A DNA stretch of 64,000 bases. It comes from an uncultured Candidatus Saccharibacteria bacterium. GTDB lineage: Bacteria > Patescibacteriota > WWE3 > 9FT-COMBO-53-11. Numbering within the stretch: position 1 is the stretch's first letter; every line of letters starts with the position of its first letter. Below the pieces are notes generated by a model that saw only the letters and a list, made by a program, of their open reading frames with translations, was not told the origin of the DNA and made no database searches. A program made the position numbers and the translations under genes. Shown in pieces: positions 764 to 54,027 of this stretch. The stretch covers positions 1,024 to 65,023 of the forward strand of contig CAZEID010000006.1 of assembly GCA_964512075.1 (NCBI GenBank), in the 5' to 3' direction.

Positions 764-838
764 TGGTGGACCCGGGGGGAATCGAACCCCCGATCTCCGC
801 AATGCGAGTGCGGCGCTCTACCGCTGAGCTACGGGCCC
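764..838 (-). tRNA. tRNA-Ala (anticodon CGC)
   Basis: Reverse complement folds as a 75-nt cloverleaf: acceptor GGGCCCG/CGGGTCC with the G3:U70 Ala identity pair, anticodon loop CTCGCAT, T-loop TTCGATT, encoded CCA. Confidence 0.8.
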
Positions 839-843
839 CAGAG

Positions 844-919
844 TGGTGGAGCGTAGCGGAGTCGAACCGCTGACCTCCTGCATGCCATGCAGGCGCTCTA
901 CCGACTGAGCTAACGCCCC
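844..919 (-). tRNA. tRNA-Ala (anticodon GGC)
   Basis: Reverse complement folds as a 76-nt cloverleaf: acceptor GGGGCGT/ACGCTCC with G3:U70, anticodon loop ATGGCAT, T-loop TTCGACT, encoded CCA. Confidence 0.8.
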
Positions 920-1015: not shown

Positions 1016-2308
1016 CTAATCCTCCAAGTAGGGAAGGGGATTAACTCGCTGGTGAGCGCTGCCGCAGTAAATCTCAAAGTGGAGGTGCGGACCAAAAGTC
1101 ACTCCGGACTCCCCCGATTGGGCAACGACCTGGCCCCTAACTACGCGCTCTCCAATCCCCACCAACGGCCGGCTAATATGACCGTAGCGGGCTTGGAGAC
1201 CCGTCGGGTTGCCGTCCTTGTCCAAAAGATCAATGAAGACCAACCCGCCGTATCCGTAGTTGCACCCCGGACCAAAGCTCATGCACCGCTGGGAAAAATT
1301 CGCCACCGCGGACACAACCCCATCTCCGATAGCGTACAAGTCCTCGTAGTCCGCAGCTAGATCAATCCCTCGGTGAGAGTAGGTATAGTCACCAATCTTA
1401 ATCTTGGACTTGGTTGGCCAACCGAACTTCAGCCCCACATCGCAAGCCCCCACCGGGGCCAGAAAACTCCCGGCGAGGTAGGAACTTTCGACCGGAACCA
1501 AAATCTCCAACCCCGGCTTAAGGTCAGCGGAAGACATAATGTAGTTGAACTCCACAATCTGTTGAGCATTCGAGCCGAACTTGCGAGCAATTGAGTTTAG
1601 AGTGTCCCCTGCCCGAATCACGTAGTTAACCCCCTCAATTGGGGGAATTGTGATCTCTTCCCCCACCGCCACGTGATAAGACATCACGCCATTCTTACCG
1701 AACGACTCTTGAATCTGTTTAGGATTGGCCGAAACCAGGGCGTCCACGGTTCGGCGGAAGCGCTCGGCAATCTTATAGACATCGTCTCCTTCCCGCACGA
1801 CATAGGTGAAGGCCTCGGTCCTGGTCAGGTCGGACTTCTCCGTCGTGAGAGTAGTACTGCTATCCAAAATCAGGGTATTCGCCAAAGAGTCCGGCTTTGG
1901 CTTCTGGAAAATAATTCCGCTCAGCGCCGCGGTAGCCACCAGCAGGGTAACAGAAAAAGCCACTAAAGTAGCGTGGGCGAAAGGAAAGGCCAATTGCCCT
2001 TTTCGGCGAACAAACCTTCGGGAGAGCCAAAACTTGAACTGCTCGGCGAGAGCAAAACCCGAAAAAACAAACCGCACTAACCCGGCGAAAAACTGGGAAA
2101 AGCGGTGGTAAAGGTAAACGATCAAACCAACCCCGAAGGACAGGAGGTCCTCCCCGAGGGTTTCTTTTTTGCTTTCCTCCCGCAATCCCCACTTGAGCTG
2201 CCCGCTCGAAAGGGATAAGGGAGGTTGCGCTGCCCTATCCATAAGCTGCCCCCTGAAGCACCTGTCCGCTTCTAGCGGAACAAAAAAGGACGGGACCCAA
2301 GATCCCAT
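1016..2308 (-). CDS. LysM-domain M23-family peptidase, N-terminally membrane-anchored
   Basis: Two LysM-like segments (YVVREGDDVYKIAERF and YVIRAGDTLNSIARKFG). C-terminal M23 motifs HRGIDLAA ... GPHLHFEIY. True start may be an internal Met. Confidence 0.7.
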   Translation of the reverse strand: MGSWVPSFFVPLEADRCFRGQLMDRAAQPPLSLSSGQLKWGLREESKKETLGEDLLSFGVGLIVYLYHRFSQFFAGLVRFVFSGFALAEQFKFWLSRRFVRRKGQLAFPFAHATLVAFSVTLLVATAALSGIIFQKPKPDSLANTLILDSSTTLTTEKSDLTRTEAFTYVVREGDDVYKIAERFRRTVDALVSANPKQIQESFGKNGVMSYHVAVGEEITIPPIEGVNYVIRAGDTLNSIARKFGSNAQQIVEFNYIMSSADLKPGLEILVPVESSYLAGSFLAPVGACDVGLKFGWPTKSKIKIGDYTYSHRGIDLAADYEDLYAIGDGVVSAVANFSQRCMSFGPGCNYGYGGLVFIDLLDKDGNPTGLQARYGHISRPLVGIGERVVRGQVVAQSGESGVTFGPHLHFEIYCGSAHQRVNPLPYLED

Positions 2309-2418
2309 CCCCGAGCTTTTTGCGCCTAAAATAGGCGCAAAAAGTGGGCAGGGAGAATGCTTAGGGACAGAATTAGACTAGCAAAAATCGGCTTAAAAAG
2401 CAAGCCAACTCGCCAAAG

Positions 2419-2439
2419 GCTAAAAGCTAAACGCTAAGG
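2419..2439. repeat. tandem heptamer array GCTAAAA-GCTAAAC-GCTAAGG
   Basis: Read directly. Lies about 110 bp upstream of the peptidase start and downstream of the rho stop. Confidence 0.5.
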
Positions 2440-2479
2440 AAAAATACCTTTTGCCTTCCGCTTTTCGCGCCGGGCTGGT

Positions 2480-3673
2480 TTACTTAGCTTCCTTAAGGGT
2501 CGCCAAAAACTCCTTGTTGCTCTTAGTGCGCCGAACGCGGTCCACGACCAACTCGGTCGCCTCATCTCCCAGAGTATCGACCATCCGGCGCAGGGTGTAA
2601 ATCTGCTCCAGGGTGGCTTTGTCAAAAAGCAGTTCTTCGTGCCGGGTCCCCGACTTTACGATATTAATCGCCGGAAAGATTCGCCGCTCTGCCAAGCTAC
2701 GATCCAGGTGCAATTCCATATTGCCGGTCCCCTTGAACTCCTCATAGATTAGATCGTCCATCCGAGAACCCGTGTCGACCAAAGCCGTGGCGATAATCGT
2801 CAATGACCCGCCCTTCTCAAAGTTCCGGGCGGCCCCGAAGAAGTGCTTCGGGGGGTAAAGAGCGATCGGATCGAACCCCCCGGTAAGAGTCCTTCCAGAA
2901 GGCGGGACGACCAGGTTGTAAGCCCGAGCAGCCCGAGTAAGGGAATCCATCAGGATTAAAACATCCTCACCCATTTCAGCAGCGCGCTTCGCCTTCTCCA
3001 AGCACATTTCGGCGATTCGAACCTGATCTTCGGCCGGTTCGTCAAAGTTAGAGGAGAAAACTTCTCCCTTCACCGACCGGGAGATGTCCGTAACTTCCTC
3101 TGGTCGCTCTCCGATCAAAGCCACCATGATCTTGACTTTAGGATGGTTAGTAGTGACACCATGGGCAATATCTTTGAGCAGCCAGGTTTTTCCGGCCTTC
3201 GGAGGGGAAACAATCATTCCCCGCTGGCCTTTCCCAATCGGAGCGAACAAGTCAATTAGCCGGGTAGAAATGATGTCGGGCTTGGTCTCGAGCGGCAGCC
3301 ATTCGTTCGGAAAGATCGGCACCAACCGCTCAAATCGGGGGCGCTTTTGCGCCTCTTCGGGGGTAAGGCCAGCCACTTTGGTAACCTTCAGAAGCGAAAG
3401 GTAGCGCTCACCTTCTTTCGGCGGCCGCGCTACTCCTTCAATTAAATCTCCCATCCGCATATCCAGCCGGCGGATTTGGGAAAGGGAAACATAGACATCC
3501 GAGGGCAGATCACCTTCCTGGGCCACTTCCGAGCGAAGAACCCCGTAATCGGGGAGAATTTCCAAAGTCCCCGATACCGGGATGGTTTCACCTCGATAAG
3601 GACCTTCGTTGCGATTTTCTCCGTTGGACCGGTAAGGTCGGGGGGAGGAAGATCTCGTTGCTTCTTCAATCAT
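2480..3673 (-). CDS. rho: transcription termination factor Rho
   Basis: 397 aa. N-terminal RNA-binding region followed by a RecA-like ATPase with Walker [11 protein letters not shown], plus a conserved Rho C-terminal region. Confidence 0.9.
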
Positions 3674-3821
3674 TAGAAAATAGCAAACGGCTTGCAGCTT
3701 ACGACGAACAGCGAAAGACCAAATCGCTGTTAGCGGTTAGCTTTATGCTGTTAGCTAGGTGGAATCGGGTAGACGACCACTGCCCCTAGTCGCCTACCCA
3801 ACCAACAATATAGCATATCTT

Positions 3822-3857
3822 GCTAAGAGCTAAAAGCAAAATGCTAAAAGCTAAACG
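3822..3857. repeat. tandem heptamer array (5 units: GCTAAGA GCTAAAA GCAAAAT GCTAAAA GCTAAAC)
   Basis: Read directly. About 150-185 bp upstream of the rho start and overlapping the 3' end of the four-helix-bundle pseudogene. Confidence 0.5.
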
Positions 3858-4206
3858 TCGTTCAGAGACTTTTGGAACGAACGCATCTTTCGAATAAGCA
3901 CCTCATATTCAGCGTAGTATTTTCCTCTGTCAGATGCAGACAGAATATTTTGCCGAACTGTAATCTCAACCAGAGGAATACACTCGTAACAGGAACCAAC
4001 CGCGATACCGACGAATCTCGCAAACTCTTTCTTGTTTCTTCCGCTTCCTTCAGCTATATTCAAAGCCGCGGAAAGCGATGCCCTCTCCTTATTTGCGAGG
4101 TGAGATCCAACAAGTACTCTTTAGGCCAATCCTTGGTAAGAGTGTAAATTTCGTGAGCTAACCCGAGAGAATCTTTATAGATATCGAGGCTTTTAAAACT
4201 AAGCAC
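3851..4206 (-). pseudogene. four-helix-bundle protein (23S rRNA intervening-sequence protein family), disrupted by a single-base frameshift
   Basis: One frame gives (GTG)LSFKSLDIYKDSLGLAHEIYTLTKDWPKEYLLDLTSQIRRGHRFPRL-stop. The frame offset by 2 nt continues ASLSAALNIAEGSGRNKKEFARFVGIAVGSCYECIPLVEITVRQNIL... Joined, they give a full-length family member. The shift sits in a GGG/CCC run at about 4081-4083. Confidence 0.55.
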
Positions 4207-4209
4207 GGC

Positions 4210-4238
4210 TTTTCGCCTTTAGCTTTTAGCCTTTCGCC
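4210..4238. repeat. heptamer array in inverted orientation (revcomp GGCGAAA GGCTAAAA GCTAAAG GCGAAAA GCC)
   Basis: Read directly. Inverted relative to the 3822-3857 array, so the two bracket the four-helix-bundle gene. Confidence 0.45.
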
Positions 4239-4241
4239 AAA

Positions 4242-4850
4242 TTACCAATACTTGGTAATTTTGATTCGACGGACGAGGAACCCGAGGTAAGCCAGAAAGA
4301 GAGAAGTGGCAATCACATCGGCGGAGCCAGTTTCCGGCAAAACTTTTCCCAAAACCTCACCCTTAACCGTAGTCCGGGCTGCGCACTGGAACCACTCATT
4401 TCCTTCCTTCCAGGTTTTCTTAATCTGAAGTACCGACTCAATCAAGTCCCCCGCCGTTACTCCGGCCTTCACCCTCGCCTGGAAAGTCACTTTGACCCAC
4501 TCTCCCGGATTAAGAACTCCTAAATTAAGGCCGTCAGTTAGCCAAGCGTCGGTTACGGAAGCACCCCCGCCCAGACTATCCGACCAGGCGGTAGAACCCG
4601 CGACATAAGTCAGATAGGGAGAAAGGGTCTCGGAAATGAAAACCGGATCAATCTTGGTATCGCCCACATTGGTAATTTGAATCGTATAGGTGAGGGTATC
4701 GCCGACCGAAGCCGTCGCCTTATCAACGGTTTGCTTGGCATCGATTTGGTAAGTCTCCGCCATGGCATTAAAAAGCGGCGCTAACGAGAGCGCAAAGCCG
4801 ATTAAGACTGTTGCAACTAGAATCTTCAAACCACTCATGCTTTTAATCAT
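4242..4850 (-). CDS. LPXTG cell-wall-anchored surface protein with a DUF11-type conserved repeat domain
   Basis: Signal peptide MIKSMSGLKILVATVLIGFALS. DUF11-like motif VGDTLTYTIQITNVGDT. C-terminal sorting signal LPETG plus a hydrophobic stretch plus RRIKITKYW. Start taken at an internal Met; the longest ORF extends to 4952. Confidence 0.6.
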   Translation of the reverse strand: MIKSMSGLKILVATVLIGFALSLAPLFNAMAETYQIDAKQTVDKATASVGDTLTYTIQITNVGDTKIDPVFISETLSPYLTYVAGSTAWSDSLGGGASVTDAWLTDGLNLGVLNPGEWVKVTFQARVKAGVTAGDLIESVLQIKKTWKEGNEWFQCAARTTVKGEVLGKVLPETGSADVIATSLFLAYLGFLVRRIKITKYW

Positions 4851-4979
4851 AGCATCAGCCCTATAAAAGTCAAGTATAGGGCTAAACTCTCCCAAAGACT
4901 CCAGATACGAACTGAAGTTTTTAGGAAAGCCCCTCACCTTTTTGAATTGCAAAGGTGAGGGGTCGCACCACTCTCGCTC

Positions 4980-7647: not shown

Positions 7648-7674
7648 TTCAGTTTACAGCAACCGAACAAATTC

Positions 7675-7770
7675 GAAATCCTAAGCACGAAATCCTAAAC
7701 AAGCCCACTTCAACCTTCGAGGTTAACGGGATCAATTACCGCAAGTTTAGGATTTAGGTTAGGATTTGCG
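7675..7770. repeat. four copies of AAATCCTAA arranged as two direct plus two inverted copies, forming a long imperfect hairpin between rpsA and radA
   Basis: 7675-7700 GAAATCCTAAGCACGAAATCCTAAAC. 7745-7770 GTTTAGGATTTAGGTTAGGATTTGCG. The two are reverse-complementary over 11 + 9 bp. An adjacent 12-bp palindrome GCGCCTAGGCGC sits at 7767-7778. Confidence 0.45.
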
Positions 7771-7780
7771 CCTAGGCGCC

Positions 7781-8848
7781 TCAGCGCCAAGCGGCCCCGA
7801 CGGCTTTGAGGGAAAGGGCGATCTTTTGCTTGCTTGGATCCACTTCCAAAATTCGGGCTTCCACCTCATCCCCTTCCGCCAGGGGACCGGTGGTTTCGGT
7901 GACGTGAATCAGCCCCTCAATCCCCGGTTCCAGCTCCACGAACGCCCCGAAATCGGCGATTTTGGTCACTTTCCCTTTGACTTTAGCCCCGATCGGATAC
8001 TTTTCGGCGATTTTGCTCCAAGGGTTAGGAAGAGTTTGGCGGTGGGAGAGCACTACTCGCCCATCCTCCGGCGAGACCTCCACCACAGCGACCTTCAAAC
8101 TATCCCCGACCTTCACAACCTTAGTCGCATCGGCCACTTTCTCCCAGGAAAGCTCCGAAACGTGGACCATTCCCTCCAGGAAATCCTCGGTCTTAGCGGG
8201 ACGAAACTGGACGAAAGCGGCAAACGGCGTCACTGAAGTCACCACTCCCTCGTACTGCTCACCTTCCTTCACCTTGCTCAAAGCGTAAAGTTCCGCCGCT
8301 CTTTCTCCCTCGCTAAGAGCCTCCCGCTCAGAAAGGACTAAGCGATCCAAGTTTCGATCGAGCTCAATAATCTTAACCCTGACAATCTTTCCCCCCAGCT
8401 TTCCGGAGTTAGCCAGCATTTTATTCGCCAAAGAAAGGTGGGAAAAAGGGATAAATCCTCGGAGGGAACCCCAACGAGCGACCACTCCGCCCCGGTTCGG
8501 CCCCACAATCTCCACTTCCAGAACTCTCTCCTCGGCGTAGGCCTTCGCCGCTTCCCGCCAGTCCCGTTCCGCCTCCGCCTTCTTGAGAGAAAGCAACACT
8601 AACCCCCGGCTGTCTTCGGATTGGACCACGGTCGCCAACACTTTGTCCCCCATTTTCAATTTGGAGAAAGTTTCCGCTTCGTCCTCGAGCTCCCGCCCCA
8701 TCACAATTCCCTCGGACTTGGCCCCGATGTCTAAAATCAACTCCTCCCGGCTTTTGGCCAGAACGGTCCCTTCCACTACATCCCCGGGCCGAAGGCGTCT
8801 CACTTCGACCTTCGATTTCTCCAACAACTTACCCATATCTCCACTCAT
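7781..8848 (-). CDS. rpsA: 30S ribosomal protein S1 (short, about four S1 domains)
   Basis: 355 aa with repeated S1-domain signatures (G.V.G.V......G.FV.L..G..GL.H.S). Confidence 0.85.
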   Translation of the reverse strand: MSGDMGKLLEKSKVEVRRLRPGDVVEGTVLAKSREELILDIGAKSEGIVMGRELEDEAETFSKLKMGDKVLATVVQSEDSRGLVLLSLKKAEAERDWREAAKAYAEERVLEVEIVGPNRGGVVARWGSLRGFIPFSHLSLANKMLANSGKLGGKIVRVKIIELDRNLDRLVLSEREALSEGERAAELYALSKVKEGEQYEGVVTSVTPFAAFVQFRPAKTEDFLEGMVHVSELSWEKVADATKVVKVGDSLKVAVVEVSPEDGRVVLSHRQTLPNPWSKIAEKYPIGAKVKGKVTKIADFGAFVELEPGIEGLIHVTETTGPLAEGDEVEARILEVDPSKQKIALSLKAVGAAWR

Positions 8849-9902: not shown

Positions 9903-10004
9903 GTTTTTCTTAAGCAAGAGCAAGGAAGGAACTGGCCGGTGGTTTTTCCGCCAAGGGCGGGTCAGCCAGAGCTGATATAGCAAACCACCAAACTTAACCA
10001 ATGG

Positions 10005-10028
10005 GGTTTTAGCGTGAGGGCTAAAACC
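10005..10028. other. 9-bp hairpin in the 16S trailer (GGTTTTAGC-GTGAGG-GCTAAAACC)
   Basis: Read directly. The stem sequence matches the GCTAAAA heptamer motif found in the 16S leader and elsewhere. Confidence 0.3.
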
Positions 10029-10130
10029 TAGCGTATCTTCCCTCATCTCCTTTTGGCCGGTTATGCCAAAAGGCCTTATCTTCCGCCAAAGAAAGGCGGA
10101 AGAACGGAAGCTACGAAGTAACTCCTTAGA

Positions 10131-11690
<1,560 letters not shown>

Positions 11691-11716
11691 ATAAACGCGA
11701 AGCGTTTATAGCTTGT

Positions 11717-11757
11717 GGCTAAAGGCAAAGCCTTTTGCTTTTCGCTTTTAGCTTCTT
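11717..11757. repeat. heptamer-type repeat and hairpin in the 16S leader (GCTAAAGGCAAAGCC / TTTTGCTTTTCGCTTTTAGC)
   Basis: Revcomp reads GCAAGAA GCTAAAA GCGAAAA GCAAAAG GC..., the same 7-nt periodic motif as at 2419, 3822 and 4210. It lies 30-70 nt upstream of the mature 16S 5' end. Confidence 0.4.
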
Positions 11758-12284
11758 GCTAGTGCTTTCGCGCTGTGTTCCTTCCTTGCTCTTGCTCTTT
11801 ACTGAATTGTTGTTTCTTGACAGAAACACCACAGTGCTCCTTACGTGTTGCACTATGGTCTGGAAAAAATTTACTTGTTAAAGTTCTCGCGATCGGGGTG
11901 GAAATTAAAAAACCCCCGTGCGGGGGCCCCAAGGGTCTACAGAAAATTGTGATTTCCTATTCCCGCATCGCTGGTGTTAATTTAACCGGTCTGAACACAA
12001 AAGTCAAGGGGGCCCCCAACTTCACCTCGGGAAGGACTAACGCCGATTAACTGGATCAAAAGCTCCCCAAACCGGCCTAAGGGCTGTCAAACAATAGTTC
12101 GGTTTTGCCAAAACAAAAGTTGACTAAACGCCAATCTCCTTTCTCCACGAAAAGGGATTAAAAATAAACAAGGTCGCAAAAACTACTCGCGGGGTAGCAA
12201 AGCTGGTAAGAAAACGCTTTTACTGGTTTGAAGATGTCTTAACAGTTGATACAGCAGCGTATAGTCCAGAATTAATTCTGGAAA

Positions 12285-13352
12285 CTACAGGACTGGCAAA
12301 CTTTTAATAATCGCCCCTCCCAAAACCTCATTCTGCTTGTAAAAAACGGCGGACTGACCAGGGGCAACCCCAAAAACAGGCTCTCGCAGAACCACCCTCC
12401 GACCCAAAAGCCGCGCTGGCAACAACTCCCCTAAATGCCGAATACGAACTTGCAAGCCGGGCAGTTTCGAGGTCCTATAGCTCCTGGAGATCCAATGCGG
12501 TTCACCAATCAAAAACTCTCGCACTTCCGCTTCTTTCCCCCGTCCCACAACCAAAGTGTTTGAGGGCACATCCTTGCCAACAACATAAAGCGGCAAACCA
12601 GTGGGATTAAAGATTTTAAAACCGTGGCGTTGACCCTCCGTGAAAAACCAAGCTCCGTCGTGTTCACCCACTACCTCACCCTTAGTATTGACCACGGCCC
12701 CCCGCCGAATTGGCAGATTCTGGCGCAGAAACTTGGCAATCGGAATCGGTCCAATGAAGCAAACCCCCATACTCTCCCTTCGGGAGTAATTTGGTAATCC
12801 GAACTTCCTTGCTAAGGAACGGACGGTCGCTTTTCGAAACTCTCCAACTGGAAACAAAATGTGTTCAAGCTGCCTCTCATTCAATCCGTAGAGGAAGTAG
12901 GACTGGTCCTTACTTTCATCGGCGCCGCGAAGAAGGTGAAAGCCATCTCTATCACGTCTAATCCGCGCATAATGACCCGTAGCAATGTAGTCAACGCGAA
13001 GATCCTTAAGCGCTTTTTTCATAAAAATCCCAAACTTAATTTCGCGATTGCAGACCACATCGGGGTTCGGCGTCCGGCCCGCCTGGTACTCCTCAAAAAA
13101 ATAACTTATAACTTTTTCTTGGTACTCCCGACGCAAGTCCCAAACTAGGAGGGGAATCTCCAGATGCTTAGCCACTCGCACCGCCGAAACCCGATCTTCC
13201 TTGGCCGTGCAGTAAGGACCCTCATCGTAGCAGTAGAGGTGGACCCCAATCACGTCGTAGCCCTGCTGCTTCAGCAAAGCGGCGGCCACCGCCGAATCCA
13301 CTCCTCCCGAAACTCCCACTGCCACCTTCGTTTCTCGGTTTTTTGCAGACAT
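12285..13352 (-). CDS. mnmA: tRNA 2-thiouridine(34) synthase MnmA
   Basis: PP-loop SGGVDS, CNREIKF, ATGHYAR, KDQSYFL motifs. Confidence 0.85.
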   Translation of the reverse strand: MSAKNRETKVAVGVSGGVDSAVAAALLKQQGYDVIGVHLYCYDEGPYCTAKEDRVSAVRVAKHLEIPLLVWDLRREYQEKVISYFFEEYQAGRTPNPDVVCNREIKFGIFMKKALKDLRVDYIATGHYARIRRDRDGFHLLRGADESKDQSYFLYGLNERQLEHILFPVGEFRKATVRSLARKFGLPNYSRRESMGVCFIGPIPIAKFLRQNLPIRRGAVVNTKGEVVGEHDGAWFFTEGQRHGFKIFNPTGLPLYVVGKDVPSNTLVVGRGKEAEVREFLIGEPHWISRSYRTSKLPGLQVRIRHLGELLPARLLGRRVVLREPVFGVAPGQSAVFYKQNEVLGGAIIKSLPVL

Positions 13353-51857: not shown

Positions 51858-51932
51858 TGGTGGCGACGGGAGGATTCGAACCTCCGACCTAAGCTTTATG
51901 AGGGCTCCGCTCTACCCCTGAGCTACGTCGCC
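51858..51932 (-). tRNA. tRNA-Met (anticodon CAT), elongator-like with a G1:C72 pair
   Basis: 75-nt cloverleaf. Acceptor GGCGACG/CGTCGCC, anticodon loop CTCATAA, T-loop TTCGAAT, CCA encoded. Confidence 0.8.
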
Positions 51933-51990
51933 GACAGCCGGGTACCAGATCTACGAAGGCCGATCCTTCCGAAGCTTTGGCGAAGGAGAG

Positions 51991-52065
51991 TGGTTGCGGG
52001 CCCTGGAATTGAACCAGGTCCTCGTGGTTATGGGCCACGCGTGGTAACCGTTCCACCAGCCCGCT
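51991..52065 (-). tRNA. tRNA with anticodon CAT and a mismatched 1:72 position (candidate initiator tRNA; Ile2/lysidine type not excluded)
   Basis: 75-nt cloverleaf. Acceptor AGCGGGC/GCCCGCA with A1xA72, anticodon stem CGTGG/CCACG, loop CCCATAA, T-loop TTCAATT, CCA encoded. Confidence 0.7.
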
Positions 52066-53951: not shown

Positions 53952-54027
53952 TGGTGGGCACCCCTGGATTCGAACCAGGAACCCCCAAGGTATAAGCTTG
54001 GTGCTCTAACCATTAAGCTAGGTGCCC
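53952..54027 (-). tRNA. tRNA-Ile (anticodon TAT)
   Basis: 76-nt cloverleaf. Acceptor GGGCACC/GGTGCCC, anticodon stem CCAAG/CTTGG with loop CTTATAC (UAU), T-loop TTCGAAT, CCA encoded. Confidence 0.75.

Follow-up and report, generated by a model that had tools for sequence, protein, structure and literature searches.

What are the tandem heptamers that fill several intergenic spacers in the first part of this 64-kb stretch of DNA (contig CAZEID010000006.1, hereafter the window), and how do they come to lie beside genes such as rho and the 16S rRNA gene? The window (G+C content, 53.6%) comes from a Patescibacteria/CPR1-like bacterium, and the named Rho homologues nearest to its own are those of candidate divisions CPR1 and WWE3. 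A first-pass annotation, made from the window alone, had described a family of GCTAAAA-type arrays 5' of a LysM-M23 peptidase gene, rho, a four-helix-bundle gene and the 16S rRNA gene, and had offered three explanations, namely rRNA-processing stems, a transcription-factor site or UP-like element, and a small dispersed repeat family. Results from our present study indicate that the last was the right option. The largest element is a complete cassette, in which a 5' arm of heptamers, an open reading frame (ORF) of family PF05635 and a 3' arm follow one another, and the others are ORF-less versions. We class the elements as a heptamer-stem cassette of the intervening-sequence type, with derivatives that lack the ORF, located outside rRNA, and they are the local form of a PF05635 architecture that is common to many phyla. 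We consider it probable, on balance, that the arrays are the arms of lineage-specific hairpin insertions, that is, of an intervening-sequence-like, self-insulating or mobile stem-loop cassette found outside rRNA.

The arrays themselves are real and lie where they had been reported. A regular-expression search of the 64 kb for at least two tandem GCNAA[AG]N units returned only 2412-2439 (+), 3822-3856 (+), 4210-4237 (-), 11732-11752 (-) and a short run at 11718-11731 (+), and the four (GCNAAAN)n arrays are confined to the first 12 kb, the remaining 52 kb having none. The motif GCTAAAAGCTAAA, with up to two mismatches, matched 14 times against 2.03 expected, and this count was reached in 0 of 100 dinucleotide shuffles. 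Tandem Repeats Finder (TRF) assigned them a period of 7 and 3.3-5.7 copies at four sites, every one of which is intergenic; with three or more 7-nt units joined head to tail between genes, they have the makeup of heptanucleotide tandem repeats. The reported distances were roughly right: the array at 2412-2439 is 104-131 nt 5' of the ATG that opens the longest LysM-M23 ORF, that at 3822-3856 is 149-183 nt 5' of the rho ATG, that at 4210-4237 is directly 5' of the GTG start (4206) of the four-helix-bundle gene, and that in the 16S leader is 38-65 nt ahead of the 16S 5' end. Three further, independent assemblies of metagenomes with the same population are 99.8-99.96% identical to the window over 7-14 kb and have the arrays without any difference, and the arrays are therefore not assembly artefacts; no difference in copy number of the kind expected from phase variation was seen among the four assemblies, a small sample. 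The arrays matched no RNA family in an Rfam scan, and a sigma-70 promoter and terminator scan of 2250-4350 gave no signal associated with them; promoter-like elements were located by comparison with related loci. The arrays look promoter-proximal because the short gaps that separate a stop codon from the promoter after it are filled by them.

The element that carries the argument is the one 5' of rho. On the minus strand, its 5' arm (ATTTGGCGAAAGGCTAAAAGCTAAAGGCGAAAAGC, 4208-4242) extends from just after the TAA of the upstream gene to 1 nt before the GTG start of the four-helix-bundle gene, and its 3' arm (GTTTAGCTTTTAGCATTTTGCTTTTAGCTCTTAGC..., 3817-3856) holds the TAG stop of that ORF (3851-3853) inside its first unit. 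The two arms are an inverted repeat of 35 nt, 77% complementary, that brackets the ORF, and their predicted duplex (-28.0 kcal/mol, z = -2.76) was equalled in 4 of 500 shuffles; as in intervening sequences, these terminal inverted repeats could form a long enclosing stem. The cassette lies outside rRNA, between the DUF11/CLIPPER gene and rho, and not inside helix 9, 25 or 45 of 23S rRNA. The enclosed gene (3851-4206, minus strand) belongs to the four-helix-bundle or 23S rRNA intervening-sequence proteins and has a 1-nt frameshift in a AGGAGAGGGCAT stretch at about 4080-4090, so that the protein can be read only across a join of frames 1 and 2. The repaired protein matched PF05635 with 81.5 bits (cut-off 33.8; E = 6e-23; positions 1-104 of 106), TIGR02436 with 79.9 bits (cut-off 24; E = 1.5e-22) and the pentameric structure of Xcc0516 (PDB 2gsc; E = 2e-11), and it has the GxxRxxxSxxxNxxE-type motif region (...QIRRGASLSAALNIAEG). 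The frameshift is common to all four assemblies, none of which has an intact frame, indicating that the gene is a pseudogene in this genome. Note that the gene between the arms is a PF05635 gene and not a PF01797 (Y1/HUH) transposase gene, as would be found in a repetitive extragenic palindrome (REP) and REP-associated tyrosine transposase (RAYT) system.

We then compared the locus with five loci (L087-L092) from four relatives, in which Rho is 80-86% identical. Every gene around the arrays is on the minus strand, in the order MnmA (12285-13352), 16S rRNA (10130-11694), HAD hydrolase, S1-domain protein, RadA/KaiC-like ATPase, hypothetical gene, DUF11/CLIPPER protein (4242-4952, stop TAA at 4242-4244), four-helix-bundle gene, rho (2480-3673, stop codon at 2480-2482) and LysM-M23 peptidase; the 16S rRNA gene is the sole rRNA gene, and no 23S rRNA gene was found in the 64-kb window. 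The relatives keep the order S1, RadA-like, hypothetical, CLIPPER-like, rho and LysM-M23. Their CLIPPER-rho spacers are 106-246 nt long against 568 nt in the window, and in these five spacers there are neither arrays nor a four-helix-bundle gene. Arrays are likewise absent from the rho-to-peptidase spacers of the relatives and from the spacers of 10-128 nt between the leader hairpin and the rho ATG, which also lack an element of the type at 3676-3757 (see below), and no hairpin of the 7674-7769 type was found in the S1-RadA spacer of L089. The few heptamer arrays that the relatives do have are of other units and at other sites. Since close relatives lack them, the elements are, by this comparison, insertions specific to this lineage, and arrays come and go within the clade; loss in every relative instead of insertion in the window is less parsimonious.

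Two conserved features lie between the insertions. Directly 3' of the cassette 3' arm is an extended -10 promoter-like element of rho (TGCTATATT, 3807-3815, minus strand), predicted from the sequence only, and the relatives have a TGnTAnAAT element at the equivalent place. It is followed at once by the rho-leader hairpin (TTGGGTAGGCGACTAGGGGCAGTGGTCGTCTACCC, 3767-3801, minus strand), which is outside the repeat family, is the landmark that delimits the insertions on both sides of it, and is kept in the window and in all five loci of the relatives (TTGGGTAGGCrACTAGGGGCAGTGGTyGyCTACCC); this conserved hairpin is a candidate autoregulatory or leader element of rho in the clade. IS200/IS605-type Y1 transposase genes (PF01797) adjoin the syntenic rho block in L089 (7420-8097) and the syntenic MnmA block in L215 (3637-4338), and they may bear on the movement of hairpin elements in the clade.

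Besides the cassette, the window has four hairpin elements without the ORF, all on the minus strand. The one in the rho 5' untranslated region (3676-3757) is made of GC-anchored heptamers (GCTAACA GCATAAA GCTAACC GCTAACA ... GCTGTTC ...), and its minimum free energy (MFE) of -27.7 kcal/mol (z = -3.0) was matched in 1 of 200 shuffles. That in the 16S leader (11695-11775) separates the RNase III-type stem strand from the 5' end of the mature 16S; it consists of the array at 11732-11759 and its partner at 11718-11731, is closed by CGCGAAAGC and GCTTCGCG, and has an MFE of -27.0 kcal/mol (z = -2.93) that was matched in 0 of 200 shuffles. Between the rho stop codon and the promoter-like element of the peptidase gene is a third (2405-2477), with a 5' half at 2447-2468 (GCGAAAAGCGGAAGGCAAAAGG) and a 3' half at 2412-2439 (CCTTAGCGTTTAGCTTTTAGCCTTTGGC) that are joined in its fold; this 3' half is also 88% complementary to the cassette 5' arm (duplex -36.4 kcal/mol, z = -4.1). 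The fourth, in the S1-RadA spacer (7674-7769), has inverted arrays of a different unit (AAATCCT and AGGATTT; TRF period 7), and the spacer fold (7648-7790) has an MFE of -48.1 kcal/mol (z = -2.93). The four GC-anchored elements share units and some ends (CAGC..GCGCGAAAGC in two of them) and, within these 64 kb, are not near-identical copies.

To learn whether the arrangement around the four-helix-bundle gene is general, we surveyed 82 PF05635 loci, 80 of which had full-length flanks and were scored for inverted repeats; 80 loci, the best matches to the motif of this subfamily, were fetched from GTDB species representatives, the phyla being Bacteroidota, Verrucomicrobiota, Planctomycetota, Patescibacteria, Nitrospirota and others. 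The genes whose products are closest to the repaired protein (63-50% identity) have inverted short-period arrays of other units on both sides, and many homologues are also matched by PF22296 (bAvd). The inverted-repeat score of the flanks exceeded the 95th percentile of 187 neighbouring genes at 56 of 80 loci and the 99th percentile of shuffles at 51 of 80, and the complementarity of the arms within a locus exceeded the cross-locus 95th percentile at 46 of 80 (p = 8e-24). The density of TRF arrays was 8.45 per kb up to a distance of 100 nt from the ORF, compared with 0.72 per kb in the rest of the loci, and 74% of the arrays near the ORF had a period of 7, 14 or 21 against 29% of those elsewhere. 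Arrays were found on at least one side of the gene at 72 of 82 loci and on both sides at 49. The arms have a median length of 4.1-4.4 units, the 3' arm starting from about 7 nt past the stop codon and the 5' arm ending about 20 nt ahead of the start codon. Neighbouring genes were mostly co-oriented (73 of 80 upstream, 58 of 70 downstream), with gaps of about 60 nt. The general architecture is a PF05635 gene co-oriented within a string of host genes and flanked on each side by an arm of about four heptamers (25-35 nt), each cassette lineage having a unit of its own. None of 20 sampled four-helix-bundle loci was in an rRNA context, and some were between tRNA or signal recognition particle (SRP) RNA genes; in L012 (1708-2516) the order is tRNA, cassette, SRP RNA and in L014 (2866-3627) tRNA, cassette, tRNA, all co-oriented.

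The unit also goes with the protein. Protein identity correlated with the 6-mer similarity of the flanks (Spearman 0.37; Mantel, 0 of 500), and among paralogues on the same contig the divergent ones differ in unit, while a pair that is 95% identical has one unit. As the units follow the divergence of paralogues on single contigs, the unit is a property of the cassette, not of the host genome. Cyanobacteria are the classical hosts of heptanucleotide short tandemly repeated repetitive (STRR) sequences, and in finished plasmid sequences from Nostoc punctiforme PCC 73102 and Calothrix brevissima, GGGTGTR arrays are found 5' and YACACCC arrays 3' of the gene.

A census from the side of the arrays gave a complementary picture. 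An exact three-unit AGCTAAA-type pattern matched more than 120 metagenome contigs, of which 80 were fetched (L093-L172); such arrays range from 3 to more than 16 units and occur widely in metagenomes. A four-helix-bundle gene adjoined the array in 0 of 80 loci and was present anywhere in the locus in 2 of 80, indicating that the arrays do not depend on the gene. An inverted partner was found within 500 nt of 31 of the 80 arrays, compared with about 5% for a reversed-sequence null. Arrays and ORF-less hairpins are hence the wider class, and the four-helix-bundle gene is optional cargo. We also observed that AGCTAAA arrays often stop a few nucleotides before start codons (e.g. L134, L147, L160, L170 and L128), resembling in this the TAACTGA repeats 5' of start codons (PMC4679880), and that the genes behind them look highly expressed (GroEL-like and ribosomal-protein-like N-termini). 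A T-rich AGCTGTT-type array, which could pair with the AGCTAAA array, is often just 5' of it.

The rRNA-processing role had been suggested by the motif's presence in the 16S leader and trailer alike, and it would have the heptamers of the two pair around the 16S rRNA. The true processing stem is further out: its 5' strand (11777-11796, minus strand), which is not a member of the repeat family, pairs 20/20 with 9913-9932. In the relative L214, whose MnmA is 77% identical, the 16S rRNA gene is flanked by 20-mers identical to the stem strands of the window, and the stem strand (AGCAAGAGCAAGGAAGGAAC) is followed by 8 nt (TTTTTTAT) and then by the mature 16S, whereas the window has about 80 extra nt in this part of the leader. 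Because the L214 leader lacks the ~80-nt array segment, this segment was inserted and is no conserved processing element. When the leader array was tested against the whole trailer, complementarity was at chance (duplex z = +0.31; 283 of 500 shuffles were as good), and heptamer pairing between leader and trailer was rejected. The trailer hairpin (GGTTTTAGC-CCTCAC-GCTAAAACC, 10005-10028, minus strand), which the first-pass annotation took to be built from the same motif, folds on itself stably (z = -3.6), and its place in L214 is occupied by a positional homologue of different sequence (GGTTTGGG...CCCAAACC), so that it was rejected as a member of the repeat family; it is a conserved-position pre-rRNA hairpin, and its likeness to the motif is probably incidental. 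A role of the heptamers in 16S processing stems is thus effectively refuted.

Two other features of the 16S region were observed. At about 11913-12013 (minus strand), 5' of the processing stem, a promoter-like TTGACT...TAAATT precedes about 70 nt of conserved sequence (CCAGCGATGCGGGAATAGGAAATCACAATTTTCTG...), which has a G+C-rich hairpin and a T-run at its end; this segment is kept in L214 and L215, had no match in Rfam, and could act as a small RNA or as an attenuator in the leader of the 16S. The sole indel among the four assemblies in the 14-kb region is a 4-nt CTTT (10092-10095) in a 16S-trailer hairpin (ccgcctttctttggcgg), in L001.

How might such insertions be tolerated? By analogy with the Coxiella intervening sequence, we propose that the element would be transcribed as part of the host transcript, since the co-orientation, the tight spacing and the absence of a promoter-like signal of its own fit this. 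The two arms would then pair into a stem of about 25-35 bp, a length suited to RNase III, which would cut the stem and release the loop with or without the ORF, so that the neighbouring RNAs stay functional. Cleavage that spares the flanking RNAs would explain tolerance near rho, in the pre-16S leader, between tRNA genes and in cas operons; the segment of the pre-16S leader that carries the element is discarded anyway in 16S maturation.

Several of our results weigh against the stem-forming insertion. In the fold of the whole 451-nt cassette (z = -1.5) the arms were paired in the MFE structure and not in the centroid, although such ambiguity is expected from the repeat registers. The energy of the hairpin at 2405-2477 was no better than that of shuffles (z = -0.61), and partial hairpins and single arms were likewise shuffle-like (z = -0.6 to -1.25); values of about -2.9 to -3.0 were obtained only for whole elements with ends set by comparison with the relatives. 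Among 111 transition-type mismatches between arms, 54 were G:U-compatible on the sense strand and 57 were A:C, and as G:U is not in excess, the mismatches give no sign that a stem in sense-strand RNA has been under selection. In the survey, 23 of 82 loci had an array on one side only and 10 of 82 had none, and at some loci (e.g. L011, L035 and L038) the arrays were in direct orientation. The lack of an adjoining four-helix-bundle gene in all 80 census loci and the lack of a definable target-site duplication at the elements point the same way; with regard to the latter, inverted ends of the type seen in MITEs (miniature inverted-repeat transposable elements) are present, and relatives with Rho ~80-87% identical are too diverged to define junctions or duplications. 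Finally, the ORF is dead here, and hence any protein-dependent function is lost in this genome.

Other explanations of the arrays were weighed as well. They could act at the level of transcription, as UP-like elements or as tandem operators of a regulator shared by rho, the peptidase, the four-helix-bundle gene and the 16S rRNA gene, and they are indeed A/T-rich, two of them just 5' of promoter-like elements. But the orthologous promoters and leaders of the relatives are free of arrays, no regulator gene is associated with the arrays, and with a period of 7 bp, neighbouring sites in an array would not share one face of the DNA helix. The positions are inconsistent too: the array next to rho spans about -10 to -50 from the putative start site, and not the -40 to -60 of an A/T-rich UP element conserved with its promoter, while others are inside the 16S leader (more than 200 nt 3' of the promoter-like element), in the rho 5' untranslated region or abutting a start codon. 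We regard this explanation, the second of those first offered, as very improbable. Slippage, by which the arrays would be functionless simple sequence repeats (SSRs) placed around the four-helix-bundle gene by accident, has in its favour that heptanucleotide repeats outnumber other long SSRs in bacteria, that metagenomes widely contain AGCTAAA arrays (3 to more than 16 units), and that abundant heptamer SSRs without an assigned function are described in the literature (PMC4679880, PMC4692102). Slippage alone would not give matched inverted arrays around one gene family at 56 of 80 loci, nor a 12-fold local enrichment, and the copy number is constant in the four identical assemblies; we consider it improbable, already disfavoured by the inverted-pair statistics.

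The arrays might instead be binding sites for the four-helix-bundle protein as a pentameric ring, the dispersed arrays being its targets or progeny in the manner of REP/RAYT or TRAP. The unit follows the protein lineage even inside one genome, the arms have about 4-5 units where the solved homologue is a pentamer (2gsc; PMC4990558), the plasmid-borne homologues are all cyanobacterial, and 15 of 61 solo arrays near four-helix-bundle genes are within Hamming distance 1 of the gene's unit, against a rough chance value of about 5%. However, co-inheritance of arms and ORF explains the covariation and the arm length equally well, the AGCTAAA arrays adjoin such a gene at 0 of 80 loci (2 of 80 carry one), the arrays of the window are intact beside a pseudogene, and nucleic-acid binding by stand-alone PF05635 members is not documented in the literature we found. 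We therefore think binding unlikely. A bolder proposal, that PF05635 proteins and heptanucleotide repeats are the two halves of one system, in which the pentamer recognises about 4-5 cognate heptamers, is in our view rather unlikely; here the gene would lie between inverted cognate arrays, and ORF-less STRR, TAACTGA, GGGAATC and AGCTAAA arrays would be its targets or progeny. If true, it would supply a function for a protein family and for a repeat class that have been without one for more than 30 years. Movement at the DNA level is a possibility that we take more seriously while still holding it tentatively: the arrays would be repeats at or near the ends of a MITE-like cassette that is non-autonomous and moved in trans, or spread via a hairpin or cruciform, with any RNA pairing incidental. 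It is not exclusive of our preferred explanation and is compatible with the same data, among them the empty sites in relatives at each element examined, the strand-symmetric arm mismatches (54 vs 57), the 95%-identical paralogue pair on one contig with the same arms, the co-inheritance of arms and ORF, and the presence of five elements within 10 kb, with a cassette 5' arm 88% complementary to the post-rho array, suggesting local copying. The cyanobacterial copies adjoin integrase or transposase genes, and Y1 transposase genes are near the syntenic block in relatives. On the other hand, neither a target-site duplication nor a transposase association was demonstrated, a pure DNA transposon does not predict co-oriented neighbours and arms that abut start and stop codons, and one trans-acting transposase cannot serve units that differ among cassette lineages.

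Returning to the hairpin insertions, the arrays beside the essential genes rho and 16S rRNA would be explained as insertions that are tolerated. The analysis identified an unannotated decayed gene and separated the true 16S processing stem from look-alike sequence. The pattern provides a concrete sequence signature for annotating PF05635 cassettes and suggests why PF05635 genes occur harmlessly in operons, cas loci, rRNA genes and tRNA clusters. Two groups that have long been orphans, S23p/four-helix-bundle proteins on the one hand and heptanucleotide repeats of bacteria on the other, are thereby connected, and the connection is testable by simple RNase III cleavage and binding assays.

A few observations concern the neighbourhood and the rest of the window. 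Between the promoter-like element and the coding region of the peptidase gene (2286-2345, minus strand) there are two hairpins, the first (TTTTTGCGCCTA-TTT-TAGGCGCAAAAA) with the shape of a bidirectional terminator and the second (GGGGATGGGATC-TT-GGGTCCCGTCC) followed by a T-run. The second of these overlaps the longest-ORF start of the peptidase (2308), and the product called in other assemblies has 408 amino acids, so that the real start is probably further 3'. Elsewhere, a tRNA-Ile gene with the anticodon UAU is found at 53952-54027 (minus strand), near two tRNA genes called as Met (CAU) at 51858-52065; AUA is decoded in most bacteria by a lysidine-modified CAU tRNA. At 764-919 (minus strand), two tRNA-Ala genes (CGC and GGC anticodons) are a tandem 80-nt repeat.

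The closest precedent is Coxiella burnetii's intervening sequence, which is in helix 45 of 23S rRNA and encodes S23p (PF05635) in a decaying ORF; its terminal inverted repeats pair into a 28-bp stem, 2-3 tandem GACAGAT heptamers, variable in number among strains, are ahead of the S23p start, and in vitro and rapid amplification of cDNA ends (RACE) evidence showed that RNase III cuts the stem at the first repeat (PMC4990558). PF05635 genes have also been found inside cas operons (PMC3936711) and in rRNA insertions of candidate phyla radiation (CPR) bacteria (PMC11270868). Heptanucleotide repeats have been studied separately: TAACTGA repeats, to which no function is assigned, in Beggiatoaceae, cyanobacteria and Bacteroidetes (PMC4679880), and GGGAATC and GGGGATT repeats in Xanthomonas and Nostoc, of which Xanthomonas has about 70 convergent pairs (PMC4692102); four-helix-bundle genes do not come up in either paper. 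In the literature that we found, the coverage of which is incomplete so that this is absence of evidence only, there was no general account of heptamer arrays flanking PF05635 genes other than the Coxiella paper, and the family-wide link appears to be undescribed and testable.

Compared with the 23S intervening sequences of Coxiella burnetii and Leptospira, the cassette of the window has the same protein family within stem-forming terminal inverted repeats (~28 bp in those intervening sequences), tandem heptamers before the start codon as in Coxiella, a decaying ORF and ORF-less versions. It differs in lying between protein-coding genes, 5' of rho, in its unit GCTAAAA, in that cutting by RNase III is putative, and in that its ORF-less kin are in the 16S leader and in untranslated regions of mRNAs. 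With the intergenic heptanucleotide repeats (STRR; TAACTGA, PMC4679880; GGGAATC, PMC4692102) the arrays share the 7-nt period, 2-6 or more copies, an intergenic location often just 5' of start codons, frequent convergent pairs and the lack of an assigned function, whereas those of the window are paired arms around a four-helix-bundle gene or around short loops. Like MITEs, the elements are small intergenic insertions that are non-autonomous, can form hairpins, have inverted ends and are missing from relatives; unlike them, their ends are tandem repeats that vary by cassette lineage, with no target-site duplication or cognate transposase identified. The PF05635 proteins resemble the Avd accessory proteins of diversity-generating retroelements in their related fold and family and in their pentameric assembly, although the genes here stand alone, without a nearby reverse transcriptase, template repeat or variable repeat. 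The REP/REPIN-RAYT system, reportedly described by Nunvar in 2010 and by Bertels and Rainey in 2011, likewise combines dispersed, short, hairpin-forming intergenic repeats with a protein gene flanked by inverted copies; there, however, the RAYTs are Y1 (HUH) transposases and the REPs are imperfect palindromes in place of tandem heptamers, whereas PF05635 has no known catalytic motif.

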